From positions 1 through 23,138 of the forward strand of contig JAPDJY010000014.1 in NCBI GenBank assembly GCA_029258835.1: a DNA stretch of 23,138 bases. Direction: 5' to 3'. Of the stretch, positions 2,696 to 13,196 are shown piece by piece (positions within the stretch are counted from its first letter, which is position 1; each line of letters starts with the position of its first letter). A program made the position numbers and the translations under genes. The notes beneath the pieces are model-generated. The model ran no database searches, was not told the DNA's origin, and saw nothing but the letters and a program-made list of their open reading frames with translations. The DNA comes from Thermoproteota archaeon. GTDB lineage: Archaea; Asgardarchaeota; Jordiarchaeia; Jordiarchaeales; Freyrarchaeaceae.

Positions 2696-3936
2696 GTTCC
2701 ACCCTCCTTGAAAGCCCTCACAACCTTTCTCGTAGCAGCCACTATGTCGTCTAGGTCTTTCCTTGAGAGGGTGGGGCTGCAACCACTAATAGCCACATAC
2801 CTCTCAATCACCTTTTCGGCGTTAGGGCACATTTTCCCGTAATCTATTGGCCGCCCGTACAGGGGGCATTCGAAGGGGCACTTTGTTTCACCATAAACGC
2901 TCTTCTTCAGGTAAAACTCTTGGAGGTTGTCAGGCACGTCGAAGTACCCGGAGGCTATCCCCTCAGCCCAGAGGGCGAAGACGAACGTTTTCCTGTCTAC
3001 TTTAAGGGAGTCCTCAAGCCTCACCGTGTAGAGCCACCAGACGCTCCTCCCCCAAGGGGGCTCCTTGGTGATGGTTATGCCGTCGCCGTCCAGGTCGCTT
3101 AGCTCCTTGGTAAGGTACTCCGCGTTCTCCCTGCGCTTCTTGATGAACTGGTCTATTTTCCTGAGCTGCATTAGCCCTATGGCGGCAGCCACTTCACTCA
3201 TCCTATAGTTATATCCCATGTAAACATACCTGTAGGCGTGGGGCTCATTAACAGGCCTGCCAAAGTTCGCTATGGAGAAGATCTTCTCTGCTAGCTCATC
3301 ATCATTAGTAAGGACGAAGCCCCCCTCACCTGTAGTTATAACCTTACTTTGATGAAGGCTGAAGCATCCGACGTCGCCTATCGTCCCAACCCTCCGACCC
3401 TTATACTCTGCCCCTATGGCCTGAGCCGCATCCTCCACCAGGAAGATCCCCTTCTCCTCGGCTACCTCCCTTATGGGGTCCAAGTCGGCTGGGTGACCTG
3501 CTAAGTGTATGGGTATCACCGCCTTCGTCCTGTCTGTCACCTTACGCTTAACATCATCCGGGTCCATCATGCCCGTATCCGGGTCGACGTCCGCGAAGAC
3601 GGGTATGGCATTCTGGTAGAGCACGCAGGTCGTCGCGGTGATGAAGCCTATGGGTGAAACTATGACTTCGTCCCCGGGCCCTATCCCGAGCGCTGCCAGG
3701 GCGGCGTGCAACGCGCTGGTCCCGGTGTTCGTCGCTATGGCATGCTTTACGCCGAAGTACCTCGCCAGCTCCCTCTCAAACGTCAGCGTCTCCTCCCCGT
3801 ACGTTCTCACCAAGATCCTAGACCTTAAAACCTTAACCACCTCGTTTATCTCCTCCTCCCCTATGGCGGGAACGTGGATCGGTAAAACTTCCTTTCTCAC
3901 GGGGGTTCCACCCTCTAAGGCAAGCCTTTCACCCAT
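2692..3936 (-). CDS. DegT/DnrJ/EryC1/StrS-family PLP-dependent aminotransferase
   Basis: Motifs GTSALH, EDAAQA, FSLHQSKVITTGEGG (PLP lysine), GYNYRM. Confidence 0.92.
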   Translation of the reverse strand: MGERLALEGGTPVRKEVLPIHVPAIGEEEINEVVKVLRSRILVRTYGEETLTFERELARYFGVKHAIATNTGTSALHAALAALGIGPGDEVIVSPIGFITATTCVLYQNAIPVFADVDPDTGMMDPDDVKRKVTDRTKAVIPIHLAGHPADLDPIREVAEEKGIFLVEDAAQAIGAEYKGRRVGTIGDVGCFSLHQSKVITTGEGGFVLTNDDELAEKIFSIANFGRPVNEPHAYRYVYMGYNYRMSEVAAAIGLMQLRKIDQFIKKRRENAEYLTKELSDLDGDGITITKEPPWGRSVWWLYTVRLEDSLKVDRKTFVFALWAEGIASGYFDVPDNLQEFYLKKSVYGETKCPFECPLYGRPIDYGKMCPNAEKVIERYVAISGCSPTLSRKDLDDIVAATRKVVRAFKEGGT

Positions 3937-3948
3937 AATGCACCACCT

Positions 3949-5631
3949 CTACTGCCTTGCAACCTCCCTCCTTAGAGCCTCCCTCAACACCCAGGGCGAT
4001 ATCTCACCCGAGTCATCAAAAACAACGTCTACAACGGCTGGCTTACCGGCTTCAAAAGCCCTTTCCAGGGCGCCGTGGACGTCGCCCGGCTTCTCAACCC
4101 TCTCCCCGTAAGCTCTAAACCCCTTAGCCACCTGGGAGAAGTCTACGTCTAAGTAGTCGACTCCTATGTACCTTTCAGAGTGCTTCACCTGCTGGATCTG
4201 CTTGATCTCGGCAGTCCCCCTGTTGTTCATGACGACCACCACAACGTTTATCCCGTGTCTGACGGCGGTCTCAAGCTCCTGTATCATGGCGGCGAACCCT
4301 CCATCCCCGGTCAGGCAAACCACGCGTTTCTCGGGGGCTGCAAGCTTGGCTCCGAGGGACGCCGGGAAGCCGAAGCCAACCGTCCCGAACCCGACGGGCG
4401 TGATGAACTCGACTCCCTCCCCGGCTTGAATGTACTTTATCGACCAGAGCTGGTTGTTTCCCACGTCCGTTACAACCACGCATTCACCCTTCAGGAACGC
4501 CTTCACCTCGTCCATCAAAGCCTTCGGCGTCACACGCCCACCCTTAACAGCCCCCTTCAGCAACTCCCCCCAGAACTCCTCCCTCACCTCCCTGAGCTCC
4601 CTCAGCCTTTTCTCCCTGCCAACGGGGGGACGCCTCCCTTTAATGGACGTGATCATTTCCTCCAGGACCGCCTTGGCGTCCCCCACTATTCCAACCCTTA
4701 CAGGGTAGTTTTTACCTATCTCACACGGGTCCACGTCTACGTGAATAAGGTTTCTCGGCACCGGCAGATGCCAGTCAACCGTCGATATGCCAGAGAACCT
4801 GCACCCCACTGCTAGCATGACGTCGCATCCGCTAATAAGCCTCCACCCGCTTTCCGTTAAGAGTGCTGCCGGGGCTACACCCAGCACTAGGGGGTTGTCC
4901 TCGGGCACCACCCCCTTACCGGTCAGGGTGGTTAGCACGGGTGCACCTAGAAGGCTCGCCAGCTCCAAAACTTCAGAGGATGCCTGCGACCACTTTACCC
5001 CTCCACCGGCGAGGATCACAGGTTTTTCAGCGCTTAAAAGTAGCTCCACAGCCTCCTCCACCTTCCCACGGTCCCCTCTCACCCTTCCCTCAGGCCTGTA
5101 GCGCTGAGGCGCGACGTCCTCGAACTCCACGTCCTCTAGCAGCACGTCCCTAGGCAGGTCCAGGTGCGCCGGCCCATACCTTCCACTCAGAGCAACCCTG
5201 AAAGCAGTCCTTAGGAGCTCGGGAACCCTGCCGCCGCTGGGAGCCCTGCAACTCCACTTAGTGAAGTGTCTGAAAACCGCGACCGTGTCGAACTCTTGGA
5301 TTGCACCTTTATAGAGCTCTGTGGTTCTAACCTGACCTGTTAAGACGATGAGGGGGGAGGAGCTTGCGTAGGCCTCGGCGACGCCGGTCACCATGTTTGT
5401 AGCCCCAGGGCCGGCTGTCCCCAAGCACACTCCCGGGCGTCCTTTAACCCTGGCGTAGCCGTCCGCCATGTGTGCGGCAGCCTCCTCGTGCCTAACCGAG
5501 ATGAGCTCCACTTCGTCCTCGTCGTAGATTGCATCGTATATGGGCTGAATGTGTCCTCCTGGAAGAGAGAAAACGTAGGGGACAGCCTCCCCCCTTAGAA
5601 CTCCAACTATGGCTTTGCTTACGCTAACCAC
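3949..5631 (-). CDS. Thiamine pyrophosphate-binding enzyme (acetolactate synthase large subunit-like)
   Basis: RHEEAAAHMADGYAR (catalytic Glu), GPGATN, and the GDGG...NN TPP motif. No ALS regulatory subunit is present in the window. Confidence 0.9.
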   Translation of the reverse strand: MVSVSKAIVGVLRGEAVPYVFSLPGGHIQPIYDAIYDEDEVELISVRHEEAAAHMADGYARVKGRPGVCLGTAGPGATNMVTGVAEAYASSSPLIVLTGQVRTTELYKGAIQEFDTVAVFRHFTKWSCRAPSGGRVPELLRTAFRVALSGRYGPAHLDLPRDVLLEDVEFEDVAPQRYRPEGRVRGDRGKVEEAVELLLSAEKPVILAGGGVKWSQASSEVLELASLLGAPVLTTLTGKGVVPEDNPLVLGVAPAALLTESGWRLISGCDVMLAVGCRFSGISTVDWHLPVPRNLIHVDVDPCEIGKNYPVRVGIVGDAKAVLEEMITSIKGRRPPVGREKRLRELREVREEFWGELLKGAVKGGRVTPKALMDEVKAFLKGECVVVTDVGNNQLWSIKYIQAGEGVEFITPVGFGTVGFGFPASLGAKLAAPEKRVVCLTGDGGFAAMIQELETAVRHGINVVVVVMNNRGTAEIKQIQQVKHSERYIGVDYLDVDFSQVAKGFRAYGERVEKPGDVHGALERAFEAGKPAVVDVVFDDSGEISPWVLREALRREVARQ

Positions 5632-5669: not shown

Positions 5670-5987
5670 TTACACGCCTTCACACCAGAGGTCTCTGATA
5701 ACCCTGTCCTTTCTGATCGGCTCAACCACTATGTCACCGTTTACCTCCGTTGTGCATGCAAGGCACGGCTTCCCGTTCACTCTAACCATGCACCTCTTGC
5801 AGAAGCCCAGATGGCAGTTGACGATGAACGCGAGGCTTGGATCCAGCTTCTCCCTAATGTAGAGCAGGCAGTTCATCACGCTCATAGCCCCCTCTAAAGG
5901 AACCTCGTATGTTTCGTAGCGCGGCTCCTCGTCCTCTTCAGGGTTAAACCTGAAGCATTTAACCTTCACAACCTTCACGCCGCCCAA
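5670..5987 (-). CDS. Stand-alone 2Fe-2S protein homologous to the SdhB/FrdB N-terminal domain
   Basis: RFNPEED..YEVP, LDPSLAF, and C-x4-C-x2-C-x11-C. It lacks the C-terminal 4Fe-4S/3Fe-4S domain. Confidence 0.85.
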   Translation of the reverse strand: MGGVKVVKVKCFRFNPEEDEEPRYETYEVPLEGAMSVMNCLLYIREKLDPSLAFIVNCHLGFCKRCMVRVNGKPCLACTTEVNGDIVVEPIRKDRVIRDLWCEGV

Positions 5988-8445: not shown

Positions 8446-8895
8446 TTTAGCCTTCACACAGCCAACGTGAAAGGTAGGTTAAGGCACGTGGCAGCAGAGC
8501 ATTCCGCTGGCTCTACTTGCCCTAAATGCGGCGTAAACCGCGCTTACGCTTGAAAAATAACCAACCCCAACTCGACAAGGCATCAACACCCAACACGGGG
8601 AACAGCCGGCAAACCCACACTAACCCTCCCAACCACCCTCACCAGCACAACCACCACACGCCACAAGCCGCACATCACCATCTCCATTTCCATTCAAATT
8701 TTGTTTACCAACTTAACATAGCCCCACAGCCAAGGAGGAGCCTAATAAGCCCTTGCCGTTCCCTTTCCATCAGGTTTTACTTATTTTCTGAAGGAAAAGC
8801 AAAAACTCTCTTGAAAAAGTCCTCGATGAAGGTTGCCGCTCCCTCTTCATCGGGTTTTGTTTGTTTTCCGGGTTGCTTTTGCTTTTTTGGTTTTT

Positions 8896-8919
8896 GGTTC
8901 TGTTAACTTATTATTGGTG
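8896..8919 (+). repeat. Left terminal inverted repeat
   Basis: GGTTCTGTTAACTTATTATTGGTG. It begins GGTTCTGTT, as the ends of IS6-family IS257/IS1216 do. Confidence 0.65.
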
Positions 8920-8995
8920 TAACGTTCCGGTGGATGAACGAAGTTGCCGAACGCAATTTGGGGGAATCTTTGATCCCTTTTATCCGCTGTTAGGC
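8917..8995 (-). other. attC-like recombination site (79 bp)
   Basis: Minus strand: R'' GCCTAAC, then AGCGGATAAAAG ... CGTTCATCCACCGGAAC, then R' GTTACAC. It forms an imperfect hairpin with two sub-hairpins and lies downstream of the last cassette gene. Confidence 0.65.
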
Positions 8996-9074
8996 GTCCG
9001 AAGGGCAAATTTCTTTGAAAGAAATTTCGAGTTTTCGAGGGTTCGCGAAATTTTACATGTTTAGTGCAGCGAAA

Positions 9075-9719
9075 TCACTTTCCGGCCTTGCAATATCTTT
9101 TGATCGGGCACTCTTCGCATTTGGGATTCTGCGACCTGCAAATTCGTCTTCCAAATTCTATCAGTATCAGATGGGTTTTCGTTCTTTGTTCTGGTGGTAT
9201 CTCGGATTCAAGTTTCGCTCTCAAATTCTCGTAGTCATCTTTTTCATCGGCTACCCCCAACCTTTTCATTATTCTGAAAATGTGAACGTCAACTGGTAGA
9301 ACTTGTTCTCCCCTGACCGCCATTAGGAAGACATCCGCGGTTTTCGGCCCAATACCCTTTATTGCTATCAGTTTTTTCTTTGCCTCGTCATAGGGAAGAT
9401 TCAATATTTTGTTTAGGTTTCCACCGTATTTTTCAACCAAATCTTTGGCGATATTTTTGATTCTTCCGGCTCTGACCCTATATAAACCCGCCGGTTTAAT
9501 AACTTCTTCGATCTCTTTCGAGCTTGCCTTTGCCACATCTTCGATGCTATTAAACCTCTCAGCAAATCTTTCGGTGGCAGTTTTCACATTTTTCCAGTAC
9601 GTTCGCTGGGAAAGGATTATGCCAACCAGCGTTTCGAATGGAGTATACCTTTCCCACCACTCGTTAATTTCGTATTTCTCCGATAGAATCTCCACTATTT
9701 TTCGAAGTTTTGCCTTCAT
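9075..9719 (-). CDS. nth: Endonuclease III-family HhH-GPD DNA glycosylase with 4Fe-4S cluster
   Basis: ILSQRT, HhH motif KGIGPKTA, LPVDVH, and C-x6-C-x2-C-x5-C. Confidence 0.9.
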   Translation of the reverse strand: MKAKLRKIVEILSEKYEINEWWERYTPFETLVGIILSQRTYWKNVKTATERFAERFNSIEDVAKASSKEIEEVIKPAGLYRVRAGRIKNIAKDLVEKYGGNLNKILNLPYDEAKKKLIAIKGIGPKTADVFLMAVRGEQVLPVDVHIFRIMKRLGVADEKDDYENLRAKLESEIPPEQRTKTHLILIEFGRRICRSQNPKCEECPIKRYCKAGK

Positions 9720-9757
9720 GGCTCATCACTCGGCAACGCTTACTTTGCAAATGTATC

Positions 9758-10252
9758 TCATTTTACATTGCGCGCACCCCTTTTTTCCCCGAACTGGTTC
9801 ACAACCATTATCGCCAGGAAGCCGGTTAGACCTATTCCGCCGAGCACTAAAAATTCCCAGTGCAGAAACGTCGCAATGGGAATGGCAACGGTTGGAATAA
9901 CTGTCAATAAACCCCAAGTTAAGCCAGCAAGTTTCATTCCGAGTTCGTAATTGCCCGACTCCCCCTTGAACAGATGCGAACTCAATTTACCCCAGCCCGT
10001 GCCACATAACTTGTTGTAGTAATAGCAATGCGTGCATAGATGTTTCCTCAAAACGAATCCCAACATTATGACGGCAAATGGCGGATAAACAATGGAAATT
10101 ACCGGTAATCCGGCAAATCTCGATGCAGACATACCGTAAGCGGCGAATCCAAACCAGAGCAGTAGCAGAACATTTGTTAAAACAATTGCTGCCTTTGGAT
10201 AATTCTCCAACCCCTTTTTCGTATAATCTTTGTTTTTCCACGCTTCACACAT
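9758..10252 (-). CDS. Four-TM hypothetical membrane protein with CxxC-x6-C; C-terminus probably frameshifted (would otherwise end at 9726)
   Basis: Hydrophobic helices and LCTHCYYYNKLC. ATG 10252 overlaps the alkA end. The -1 frame continues KKGCAQCKMRYIC. Confidence 0.7.
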   Translation of the reverse strand: MCEAWKNKDYTKKGLENYPKAAIVLTNVLLLLWFGFAAYGMSASRFAGLPVISIVYPPFAVIMLGFVLRKHLCTHCYYYNKLCGTGWGKLSSHLFKGESGNYELGMKLAGLTWGLLTVIPTVAIPIATFLHWEFLVLGGIGLTGFLAIMVVNQFGEKRGARNVK

Positions 10253-11165
10253 CCTTCCTCTCTTCCATATTATAAGCACATATTAAATAATAAATTATCC
10301 AACCCTTGAACTCCCCCCATCTTTCCGTGAATTTTCTAACGGTGTCTCCGGATTGAAGTTTTCCGTCAAAGTAGAAATATGAAACCGCTTTTCTGGCTCC
10401 GAGGTCGTCGGGAACGCAGAGATCCATTCTTCCCAACGTCGTTATCAATATCAGCTCGGCAGTCCACCTTCCAATTCCCTTAAACTTCATCAACTCTTCA
10501 ATAGCTTCTTCGTTGTTCATCTTCCTGATTTTCTCCAAATCGTATCCATCGGCAACTTTCAGCGCGAGTTCTTTAATGTATCTGGATTTCTGACGGGACA
10601 ACTTACACTTTCTCAATTCGTTCTCATCCGCACTTGCCAATGCTCGTGGTGAAGGAAAATCATAATATGGTTCGCCATTAATTTCTATTTTCTCTCCAAA
10701 TCTCCTGACCAATGCCCCGGTTATGACATAGGCAACTTGCAAAGAAATCTGCTGCTGGATTATTACTCTAATCGCTCCCTCAAATATGCTCGCCCCGATT
10801 CCCGGAGGCCTCAAACCGTAAAGTTCGTTCTTCACCCTATGAAGTATTTTGTCTTGATCCATGAAATTATATAATCTACCAAGATCATCCCTTAGTCTAA
10901 AAATATCCGCTATTTTATCCGACAGATATCTCTTCTCTTTCGCATCGAGTTTGGAGGATGCGTTAACCCGCAACTTTGGCTTTTCTACGGTGCCAACGGA
11001 AGTGATCTTTACCGGAACCAATCTATCTCCAATTTTGAAAACCCTTCTCCAGATGCCATCTTTATAGATTTCTGGCTGCGGGTCCCTGGACGAAGAATAA
11101 AATTTCCATTGCAGATCAAAATTATAAGGTGGGGTTGGTAGGAGTTCGAATGAAGCTTTATCCAT
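10245..11165 (-). CDS. alkA: AlkA-like DNA-3-methyladenine glycosylase (HhH-GPD)
   Basis: IIQQQIS, FPSPRALA, KGIGRWTAE, PDDLG. ATG 11165 is preferred over GTG 11174 from TATA spacing. Confidence 0.85.
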   Translation of the reverse strand: MDKASFELLPTPPYNFDLQWKFYSSSRDPQPEIYKDGIWRRVFKIGDRLVPVKITSVGTVEKPKLRVNASSKLDAKEKRYLSDKIADIFRLRDDLGRLYNFMDQDKILHRVKNELYGLRPPGIGASIFEGAIRVIIQQQISLQVAYVITGALVRRFGEKIEINGEPYYDFPSPRALASADENELRKCKLSRQKSRYIKELALKVADGYDLEKIRKMNNEEAIEELMKFKGIGRWTAELILITTLGRMDLCVPDDLGARKAVSYFYFDGKLQSGDTVRKFTERWGEFKGWIIYYLICAYNMEERKDV

Positions 11166-11185
11166 GATGACCACTTAAATTCAAT

Positions 11186-11204
11186 TTATTTAATAATTTT
11201 TTCA
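11186..11204 (-). promoter_or_regulatory. Cassette-internal BRE/TATA promoter (leaderless alkA)
   Basis: Minus strand reads TGAAAAAATTATTAAATAA about 25 nt upstream of ATG 11165. Confidence 0.55.
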
Positions 11205-11254
11205 CACACCGCGTCAAATCAAAGTTTGAAAATAGCGAACCCTCGAAAAACTAC

Positions 11255-11290
11255 GCCTAACGCGTATTCCACGCACTTTTATTCGTATAA
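11255..11290 (-). other. attI-like site with core G|TTAGGC
   Basis: GTTRRRY core at 11261-11255, between the recombinase start and the cassette. It is complementary to the cassette's own R'' (ACGCCTAAC). Confidence 0.55.
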
Positions 11291-11310
11291 TCTCTCAAAT
11301 GGGAGTTAAA

Positions 11311-11326
11311 ACGAAATTTTATAAAG
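11311..11326 (+). promoter_or_regulatory. Putative BRE/TATA promoter of the recombinase gene
   Basis: ACGAAATTTTATAAAG about 25 nt upstream of ATG 11348. Confidence 0.5.
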
Positions 11327-11347
11327 CCAAAATTCATACGACTCCCT

Positions 11348-11958
11348 ATGGACTTGAATGTTAAAAGCTTACGCCGCAGGAACGATATGAGTTGATAGGA
11401 AGCTCATAGGAGAAATAAAGCTGAGGAGGTGTTCTCAGCAATTAGGCAAAGCTTACATCCCGGTTGTGGAAGGGTTTAAAATCTGGGAAAACGCCGAGAG
11501 AATTCTTGCTTTCTTATCAAAGCAGATCAGCCGTGAGAGGTGCTTACTTTGCTTTGAAGCCCTTCTATGAAAACGTGCTTAATGAGAAATTCGATGTGAA
11601 GCCGCCATTGGCTAGGAAGAGCCTGAGGCTACCATTGGTATTAAGCATATGAAATGTGCAGAATGGTTGAAGTAGCTACAGACATTAAGGTACAAGCTTG
11701 TTTGATGTTTCTTCGCTACGCCGGCCTCCGCTTGGATGAGGTTAGAAATCTGAAATGGCGGGACATAGACTAGAACTAGATTTATAGGGTATCATTCATG
11801 TTAAAACAGCTAAAGGGGAAAGGAGAAGGTTGTGCTCCTAATTCCAAAATAAAGACTAAACTAAATTTATGGTGCTAATGAAAAGGTCTGGTTTTCACGT
11901 CACGAAGAGGTAGAAAATACAAAGTAAGAGGACAATTCAGCAAATAGTGGAGAAATAG
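11348..11958 (+). pseudogene. Decayed, truncated tyrosine recombinase (IntI/Xer-like)
   Basis: Fragments read across frameshifts: EIKLRRCSQQLGKAY, ALKPFYENVL, RLPLVLS, YAGLRLDEVRNLKWRDID, IHVKTAKG, LVFTSRRG, RTIQQIVEK. The HxxR and catalytic Tyr region is missing. Confidence 0.85.
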
Positions 11959-11970
11959 CCAAGATATGCA

Positions 11971-12130
11971 GATGGTTGGTTCGTTTACTATAACTTCTTG
12001 AGGCCTCATCTGGGCAAGGTAAAACACCCGCTGAAGCTTGCGGAATTGATTTGAACATAGGAAAATGGTTGGGAAGATCTGATAAGAGAGGCTACTTATT
12101 ATCAAACCAAGTTGGACAGGGATTGTTTCC
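11971..12130 (+). pseudogene. C-terminal remnant of a DDE transposase (archaeal IS6-like)
   Basis: DGWFVYYNFLRPHLG, frameshift, GKTPAEACGIDL, frameshift, WEDLIREA. Confidence 0.7.
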
Positions 12131-12174
12131 ACGGAGGCGGGAATGCAAGTTCAATGATTTTTATTTTTCATCTT

Positions 12175-12199
12175 CACCAACGACAAGTTAACAGAGACC
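12175..12199 (-). repeat. Right terminal inverted repeat
   Basis: Reverse complement is GGTCTCTGTTAACTTGTCGTTGGTG. The inner 21 nt match the left repeat at 18 positions, with an 11-bp perfect core. Confidence 0.65.
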
Positions 12200-12507
12200 T
12201 TTTTCTGTTTTCTTTTGGGTGTTTTCGGTGTTTTTTCGACGTTTGTCGAGCTCTGAAAGGTATATATGTGATTGTTGTTTTCGCAATGGACGGGAGGTGT
12301 GATAAGAGTTTATTTCTGTTTTCCTTTTCTCGGTTTTATGAGGGTTTGTTTTTCTTTTTAGTTATTTTCTTCCTTGCTTGCATAATTTGTGCAGTGCGTG
12401 ATAGGATGAATGTTTCCTTGTTTCCGTGGTTGATTTTTGGTTGGTTTAGGGTTTAGAAGGTAGTAATGTTTTTATATTACTGGTTGGTATTACCACTGGG
12501 TGGTTAC

Positions 12508-12735
12508 ATGGGTTATGTTACCGTTTCGGCTAAGATTGATAGGGAGCTTTATGAGAAGGTGAAGAGGTTGGGGGTTCCTGTCAGTAGGGTTATTAGGAGG
12601 GCGTTGGAGGAGGAGGTTAGGGTGAGGGAGGAGGAGGAAGTTAGGGGGGCGTTGGGTAGGGCGCAGGAGATCTTGAGGAAGATTCCTTCTGAGGAGATGG
12701 TTGGCGTTGTGAGGGCTGGACGTGAGGAGAGATGA
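12508..12735 (+). CDS. vapB: Ribbon-helix-helix (CcdA/VapB-like) antitoxin
   Basis: MGYVTVSAKIDRELYEK..VSRVIRRALEEEV. ATGA overlap with the PIN gene. TATA-like TTTTATAT near 12470. Confidence 0.8.
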   Translation: MGYVTVSAKIDRELYEKVKRLGVPVSRVIRRALEEEVRVREEEEVRGALGRAQEILRKIPSEEMVGVVRAGREER

Positions 12736-13196
12736 GGCTGGTTTTTGACACTTCAGCGCTGTTGAACATGGTTAGGTTTCTCGGTTCAGACGCTGTGGAC
12801 TACCTTAGAGGAGGCTATATTCTGACGCTTACTCCCTACGAGGTCGGCAACGCGTTATGGAAGGAGGCGGCACTGCTGGGCAGGATATCCGTTGAGGAAG
12901 CGTTATCGCTGCTGGACTACGTCGCCAGCGTATATAAGCTTTTGAGCATTACCGCTCCACGCGACGCCTTGTTAACCTTAAAGCTGGCTTACGAGCTGAA
13001 CGTAACGTACTATGACGCCTCATACATAGTTGCGTCGCATGAGTTAAACGTTGGGCTGGTAACCGACGACGAGAAGCTGAAAAGAAAAATTCATGAGAAG
13101 ATGGGGGTTCTCACCAGAGTCCTCGGTAAAAGCGTAACCGTATACTCGACGAGGGAGCTAATAGAAAGCTATGGGCAGCCAGGCAGCACCTGCTAA
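12732..13196 (+). CDS. vapC: PIN-domain VapC toxin
   Basis: VFDTSAL, YEVGNALWK, TYYDASY, VTDD. Confidence 0.88.
   Translation: MRLVFDTSALLNMVRFLGSDAVDYLRGGYILTLTPYEVGNALWKEAALLGRISVEEALSLLDYVASVYKLLSITAPRDALLTLKLAYELNVTYYDASYIVASHELNVGLVTDDEKLKRKIHEKMGVLTRVLGKSVTVYSTRELIESYGQPGSTC

Follow-up and report, generated by a model that had tools for sequence, protein, structure and literature searches.

The stretch of DNA analysed here (hereafter the window) comprises 23,138 nucleotides (nt) of contig JAPDJY010000014.1, or C44, one of the 91 contigs of a 2.72-Mb metagenome-assembled genome (MAG; GCA_029258835.1, 94.7% complete, 6% contamination) of an archaeon placed in the Jordiarchaeia of the Asgardarchaeota. 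The element under study occupies positions 8896-12199 (~3.3 kb), where IS6-type transposon ends enclose three minus-strand genes, a site resembling the attC sites of integrons, the remains of a divergently oriented tyrosine recombinase gene and the 3' end of a transposase gene. A reading made from the letters of the sequence alone (the original prediction) had already listed these components, together with the AT-richness of the interior (GC 0.39-0.47 inside the element versus 0.50-0.63 in the coding flanks), and had seen in them a decayed, transposon-borne integron. To follow it up we searched the DNA of 40 relatives, the contigs of four public vent and sediment metagenome runs (X1-X4) and 80 metagenome loci (L numbers) encoding relatives of the recombinase.

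The element is bounded by two terminal inverted repeats, a left one (IRL) of 24 nt at 8896-8919 on the plus strand, 96% identical to the left repeat of locus L068, and a right one (IRR) of 25 nt at 12175-12199 on the minus strand. They share a 21-nt core that is 86% complementary, and both open with GG..CTGTT. Repeats of the IS6 family carry a GG tip followed by a CTGTT motif (PMC7986276), and the two ends are therefore of IS6 type, as had been proposed; a 19-nt pattern drawn from them has nine matches in the genome, as opposed to none for a reversed control. Next to the right repeat, 11946-12174 (plus strand) holds a broken 3' remnant of a probable IS6-family DDE transposase gene, its catalytic residues gone, and a conserved sub-terminal sequence. 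The part at ~11946-12120 aligns with residues 142-201 of a 212-amino-acid (aa) IS6 transposase and is 62% identical to an intact PF13610 protein, which bears out the predicted remnant. Its DNA is 76-81% identical to remnants or copies on contig C14 of the same genome, in genomes G014, G146 and G045 and at L068, and the sister transposase copy on C14 matches PF13610 at 2.4e-11.

An intact relative of this backbone is found at L068 (2877-6680). This IS6-family element measures 3.8 kb, shares the repeats, encodes a PF13610 transposase of 212 aa and is flanked by a 7/8 target duplication, from which it follows that long IS6 elements of such size do transpose. Its cargo consists of restriction-modification genes, including a methyltransferase, plus two small minus-strand genes, and the site models introduced below found no attC-like site in it. 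At the other extreme, a miniature element of ~545 bp at L047 (680-1224, genome G302) possesses both IS6-type repeats and little beyond one attC-like site. A second IS6-family transposase (~30% identical) lies convergent to, and directly downstream of, recombinase relatives at L087, L088, L096, L105, L108, L112, L142, L151, L153 and L154, so that the association with IS6 is wider than one lineage.

Most of the interior is occupied by a gene cassette of 2.34 kb (8923-11260, minus strand), presumably a unit of site-specific recombination, whose limits are given by homology breaks and by a complementarity of nine bases. Its three genes lie on the minus strand, as had been predicted. The first (9075-9719) is intact and encodes an endonuclease III-like HhH-GPD DNA glycosylase of 214 aa with a 4Fe-4S loop (PF00730 at 1.5e-25; PF10576), which also matches TIGR01083 at 3.1e-40, under the cut-off of that model, and the PADLOC model of a type II nicking endonuclease at 3.2e-18. 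The second (9758-10279) encodes a predicted membrane protein of 173 aa that belongs to no known family, and the third (10245-11174), likewise intact, an AlkA/Ogg-like HhH-GPD DNA glycosylase of 309 aa (PF00730 at 4e-17; AlkA_N). PADLOC gave no match for two of the three cargo proteins. All three cargo genes are intact and are probably still expressed from the cassette's own upstream region.

This cassette is not peculiar to the source genome. Relatives of the AlkA-like protein with 80-90% identity occur in 11 MAGs labelled as Thermoplasmatota, Ca. Methanoxibalbensis, Nitrososphaeria, Aenigmatarchaeota, Thermoprotei, Altiarchaeales, Bathyarchaeota and others, and in 12 loci spread over many archaeal phyla the three genes, taken as a module, show 80-87% DNA identity. 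Genome G014, of another Asgard family, carries the module at 80% DNA identity within the same IS6 ends, with the membrane protein gene mostly deleted. In runs X1-X4 the summed contig depth of the cassette region (9100-11200) is several-fold to ~25-fold that of the flanks, which is consistent with many other members of these communities having the cassette.

Comparison of these copies places the limits of the cassette with precision. Upstream of the AlkA-like gene, homology opens exactly at GTTAGGCG (GTTAGGC), and the sequence that precedes it differs in four contexts (L028, L029, L032 and the group of the window). On the downstream side of the endonuclease III-like gene, the homology shared with L028 crosses a site of 70-80 nt and halts at the GTTA of an outer core. 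Furthermore, the cassette starts with nine bases, GTTAGGCGT, whose reverse complement, ACGCCTAAC, opens its end site, as would be needed for closure into a circle at G|TT. The same rule, with a single occurrence beyond the divergent genes, is found at 5/6 platform loci with related recombinases (chance ~0.02 per locus). Judged from sequence, the breaks at GTTAGGCG and GTTA together with this rule thus delimit a discrete unit bounded at G|TT, as the cassettes of integrons are. A perfect hairpin (9005-9030) followed by a 15-nt arm (9032-9046) is kept in cassette copies; the arm pairs perfectly with 11235-11249, the two lying just inside both cassette ends and being conserved in several copies, and the 15-nt arms with the 9-nt cores would extend the stem of a closed site.

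At the left end of the cassette lies an attC-like site (8908-9005, minus strand), homologous to a site at L028 (9078-9146). It was recognised by a covariance model, R2, built without any site from the source genome and without the orthologous L028 site, as the sole match in the window (43.1 bits, E = 5.5e-8). The site is composed of the inner core ACGCCTAAC (8989-8997, as reverse complement), a short L stem, a CCAAATT centre and a 5-nt bulge, and its outer core GTTACAC (8917-8923) overlaps the inner end of the left repeat. This bears out the attC-like element of the original prediction; the perfect hairpin at 9005-9030 is distinct from the site and belongs to the 3' part of the cassette. Sites of this kind follow a common order: an inner core ending in AAC, 1 nt, an 11-bp stem, a first hairpin, CCAAATT, a second hairpin, the other stem half, 5 nt and GTTRRRY. 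In an alignment of 17 sites, 95.8% of the stem cells are paired, as against 23-49% with slid partners, 34 cells are compensatory, and none of 500 shuffles equals this. Cores and a covarying L stem are present, as in attC, and the spacers of 1 nt versus 5 nt and the conserved centre depart from the canonical form; the sites probably constitute a separate family.

The first site model had detected nine sites in the source genome and 39 in a Methanoxibalbensis MAG, and sites are present in 9/151 sampled Asgard genomes. In that MAG (G041, Ca. Methanoxibalbensis ujae, one of the ANME-1 anaerobic methanotrophic archaea), the 39 sites form co-oriented arrays with a spacing of 0.3-3 kb on its contigs C23, C12, C26, C59, C1 and C4, which implies large cassette arrays. 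A grammar scan for AAC-stem-GTT sites proved too permissive at eight pairs, so that only its top matches were usable; a stem scan placed the inner core of an L028 site at 5838. A 14-mer of the window site, ACGCCTAACAGCGG, recurs on contig C64 of the source genome (~3690-4500) beside an IS607-like element (serine recombinase and TnpB-like gene) and downstream of a PIN gene, and the site models made no call at this copy.

At the other end of the cassette, GTTAGGCGT (11253-11261, minus strand; ACGCCTAAC when read on the plus strand) forms an attI-like junction, followed up to 11348 by the conserved upstream region of the recombinase with a box resembling a B recognition element and TATA motif (~11313-11328). 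The stretch that separates cassette and pseudogene also precedes intact recombinase genes (L054, L065), as their native upstream sequence. Truncated relics of it occur on contig C60 and in G014. A repeat of ~170 nt (11265-11435), also present on C60 and twice in G014, was considered as an attC site, a small RNA or a miniature inverted-repeat transposable element and rejected as such, having no consensus fold; it represents the first codons of the recombinase gene and what lies upstream of them.

Beyond the junction follows the divergent tyrosine recombinase pseudogene (11349-11952, plus strand), in the position next to a GTTAGGC core in which the original prediction had placed it. It corresponds to residues 1-204 of 269, is without the RHSFATH box and the nucleophilic tyrosine, and spans three frames with ~10 stops relative to an intact 269-aa relative. 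An open fragment of 68 aa retrieves a family of 266-269 aa at up to 83% identity, with hosts among DPANN groups, the Altiarchaeales and the cultured methanogen Methermicoccus shengliensis. Recombinases from distant phyla are 72-88% identical, and by this measure the family has spread horizontally. Four intact relatives score 207.7-222.9 bits with the archaeal XerA model NF040815, one of the four above its cut-off of 220, and intact relatives reach 188-193 bits, in two stretches, with the integron integrase model TIGR02249, versus a cut-off of 265. In an alignment with VchIntIA (2A3V), its residues 174-241 are matched by just 22 residues of relative P0001; with 67 residues set against 22, the domain specific to IntI is therefore absent. 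The alignment with Pyrococcus abyssi XerA (PDB 4A8E), by comparison, is contiguous over residues 10-264 (E = 2e-39), and the pseudogene of the window covers the region concerned, with no room for the IntI domain. Another tyrosine recombinase gene of the source genome is located on C50. A 412-aa gene upstream of the L034 cassette was examined as possible kin and is unrelated.

The enzyme family, the sites and the IS6 backbone are linked beyond the window. Among the 80 metagenome loci, 23 hold sites, which are upstream of the recombinase in 22, and for all 35 sites the strand is the one opposite to that of the recombinase gene. Upstream DNA makes up 38% of the flanks and the expected fraction of upstream and opposite sites is 0.19 (binomial p = 3e-15 by locus, the loci being partly interdependent). 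An attI-like junction with a divergent array, the arrangement of an integron, occurs in the window (11253-11348), on contig C59 of the source genome (6043-6070) and at 22/23 of these loci. Every IS6 left repeat in the genome (C44, C59, C60, C14) has an attC-like site of different sequence directly inside it, joined at its GTTA core. The closest parallel is C59, where the architecture of the window recurs with other cargo: a left repeat, two single-gene cassettes each with a site, a pair of attI-like boxes and a full-length but broken recombinase gene. The other copies with other cassettes that the original prediction had led one to expect are accordingly found on C59, C60 and C14 as well as in metagenomes, and at contig ends in other samples the left repeat, the outer core and the GTTAGGC junction are each joined to other sequences.

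A group of loci of one DPANN-like population (L056-L063) displays strain-variable DNA upstream of the same recombinase, with breaks at a conserved hairpin site. The variable DNA is mostly an N6/N4 methyltransferase block, and one locus carries KwaA/KwaB (Kiwa defence).

The element has inserted into a CRISPR (clustered regularly interspaced short palindromic repeats) locus. To its left, and outside it, lies an orphan mini-array of two 37-nt repeats and one spacer (8752-8868, plus strand), with a degenerate repeat at 8752-8788 (6 mismatches) and another at 8832-8868 (2 mismatches); the same repeat makes arrays on C48, C49 and C59. Family searches found no cas genes in the window near this array. 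When 8832-8895 is joined to 12200-12500, the result matches, in colinear order, the array leaders of C49 and C48, TATA-like block included, and the element therefore sits inside a CRISPR leader, as a result of which a repeat-proximal part (8869-8895) is severed from a distal part with the conserved TATA-like box (12200-12300, minus strand). Repeats of the genome's own type and a conserved leader identify the locus as a CRISPR array with its leader, and the suggestion that the T/G-rich tracts on both sides were one interrupted region is thus borne out. The insertion lies ~27 bp from the first repeat, and the promoter-like block is now 3.3 kb from the repeats, so that a mobile element has probably put a CRISPR array out of action here by cutting through its leader. 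A preference of such elements for CRISPR leaders was considered and discarded, as the left flank of C59 appears leader-like by eye only and BLAST gives no support. Directly to the right of the leader, 12466-13196 encodes a ribbon-helix-helix (CcdA/CopG-like) and PIN-domain pair, a VapBC-like toxin-antitoxin module. Searches of the window with Rfam at gathering thresholds and a scan for tRNAs gave no matches.

Taken as a whole, the locus is likely to be a decayed, transposon-borne, integron-like gene-capture element with a recombinase of the XerA type. The description as a decayed integron on a transposon holds in its architecture but not in the strict sense of the term, since the relatives of the recombinase are XerA-like and without the integrase domain that defines an integron. 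In the ancestral order, a left IS6 repeat would have been followed by one or more cassettes, each with its folded attC-like site, by the attI-like GTT junction, the divergent XerA-type recombinase gene, the IS6 DDE transposase gene and the right repeat. By analogy with integrons, the recombinase would excise a cassette circle by way of two outer cores at G|TT and insert circles at the junction beside its own gene; its position and orientation and the logic of the cassette boundaries point to this role in cassette exchange. The IS6 transposase, acting in cis or from another copy, could carry the whole platform between replicons. A single deletion, suspected in the original prediction near 11960 and here placed at ~11955, fused recombinase codon ~204 to transposase codon ~142, at the cost of the C-terminus of the recombinase and the bulk of the transposase. 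The arrangement before the deletion, with recombinase, transposase and right repeat in this order, survives in metagenome relatives at L144 and L161. At L083 and L085 an intact recombinase is followed by the right repeat, and L156 bears a deletion of the same kind. With this deletion and stops in both remnants, the element is immobile on its own, and the copy in the window can neither move nor exchange cassettes by itself.

Several observations weigh against this interpretation. The recombinase lacks the domain held necessary for recombining folded attC sites. The site of the window, taken alone, folds no better than its shuffles (z = -0.55), and its L stem is just 6 bp long with one mismatch. 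Twelve of the 17 rows in the alignment used for covariation were matches of the first model of the same structure, which biases them toward that structure, even though the MAFFT alignment itself was not fitted to it. Some cassettes of the family hold several genes or have genes reversed, unlike typical integron cassettes. A copy with an intact recombinase, an intact transposase and both repeats was not found among the 80 metagenome loci, nor was a recombination product (circle or empty site) seen in the contigs of the four runs. The 8-bp target duplication is absent at the window, where the flanks share only TTTTT within a T-rich tract. The empty insertion site that the original prediction had suggested seeking (8895 joined to 12200) did not turn up in the 40 relatives, searched by DNA, or in the contigs of the four runs; these bridge both junctions and display only the occupied site, although contigs can drop rare variants, and the paralogous leaders of C48 and C49 are the nearest stand-in for it. 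Finally, a MAG as source leaves room for mis-binned contigs; here the CRISPR repeat ties C44 to four other contigs of the bin.

The main rival explanation regards the cassettes as ordinary ones, of the type of clusters of attC sites lacking integrases (CALINs), that are served in trans by a canonical IntI, while the XerA-like enzyme resolves cointegrates or is a chromosomal Xer. Most published archaeal integrons are indeed attC clusters without an integrase (PMC9668308), IS6 elements move by way of cointegrates that need resolution (PMC7986276), and the recombinase scores at the cut-off for XerA. Yet an integron integrase above cut-off was found neither in the source genome nor in four other cassette-bearing genomes, and the sites lie upstream of and divergent from the recombinase at the 22 loci mentioned above, which mostly have no IS6 ends. 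Besides, at 5/6 platform loci where it could be located the first cassette begins within ~100 nt of the recombinase start codon, and identities of 72-88% over phyla are a misfit for a vertically inherited Xer. We therefore regard this explanation as unlikely. Far less plausible still is that the 2.3-kb module is a small transposon of its own, with GTTAGGCGT and the 15-nt arm as ends, or owes its movement to a single-strand transposase of the IS200/IS605/IS607 type. Perfect inverted repeats of 9 nt and 15 nt do flank the three genes, and C64 has the related 14-mer next to an IS607-like element, but homology with L028 extends 68 nt past the left of these repeats, takes in the attC-like site and ends at GTTA, so that the unit is asymmetric and therefore cassette-like, and no transposase accompanies the module in the 12 loci. 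The weakest reading, under which the locus is a plain IS6 transporter, or what is left of a composite transposon, with passengers acquired by illegitimate recombination, GTTAGGC and hairpin being due to chance, can draw on the intact L068 with its restriction-modification passengers and no attC-like site and on the poor folding of the window site, but hardly withstands the match of the leave-out model (E = 5.5e-8), homology breaks exactly at the cores in several genomes, the nine-base rule and an attC-like site directly inside the left repeat of four elements of the genome.

The integron-like gene-capture element favoured here invites comparison with several known systems. With class 1 mobile integrons (Tn402/Tn21, often flanked by IS26) it shares a divergent recombinase gene beside a GTT junction, a folded site at the cassette end with RYYYAAC ... 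GTTRRRY and a G|TT boundary, and variable cassettes in a constant backbone within transposon ends, the transposition genes often being decayed. It differs from them in a recombinase that is devoid of the IntI-specific domain and scores as XerA, in sites with an asymmetric spacer (1 nt and 5 nt), a CCAAATT centre and two inner hairpins, in cassettes that may hold several genes and their own promoter, and in a platform situated inside a single IS6-type element, instead of beside IS26 copies, in an archaeal host. The integrons published from Archaea comprise six IntI genes (the IntI domain being required) and arrays that are mostly without integrase and are enriched in Asgard archaea, with no transposon-borne case (Ghaly et al. 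2022, PMC9668308). Our loci resemble these integrons and CALINs in having MAG arrays with attC-like sites, Asgard enrichment, a patchy spread and mostly no IntI nearby, and are unlike them in that an XerA-like gene heads the arrays and IS6 ends bound the platform.

Members of the IS6 family (PMC7986276) agree with the present elements in the GG tip and CTGTT motif, in PF13610, in the 8-bp duplication (7/8 in the relative L068) and in the existence of non-autonomous derivatives. They are smaller, at 0.7-0.9 kb compared with 3.3-3.8 kb here, and they differ in the duplication that the window lacks and in that cargo here lies between the left repeat and the transposase; a review of the family lists a single member with a passenger gene (PMC7986276). 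Relative to the archaeal XerA/dif system (P. abyssi XerA), the recombinase is alike in fold and length class, in contrast to its location on mobile backbones beside variable cassettes and its 72-88% identity across phyla. Aloposons were considered as a known match and are unrelated. In the literature we found no paper on an Xer-type enzyme heading such arrays, nor on a transposon-borne or IS6-borne form of integron in Archaea. What the window adds is an IS6 backbone with variable cassettes, a cassette that spans phyla and a CRISPR leader as target.

For bacteria, integrons are the textbook means of gathering genes and passing them on, and the spread of resistance is driven by the mobile ones among them. 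The locus and its relatives bring together on one DNA a cassette that several phyla share, a candidate for an integrase of another kind and the backbone of a transposon, and they render two questions testable, namely which enzyme serves the cassette arrays of Archaea and how cassettes pass across phyla in vent sediments. Tentatively, and with slightly less than even confidence, we propose that XerA-like recombinases of 266-269 aa may be the working integrases of a large part of the archaeal cassette arrays that have no integrase, recombining folded sites without an IntI domain, and that their platform may ride on IS6 transposons in hydrothermal sediments. Archaea would then possess true mobile integron-like elements of their own, by which modules such as the one with two glycosylases would be spread over phyla.

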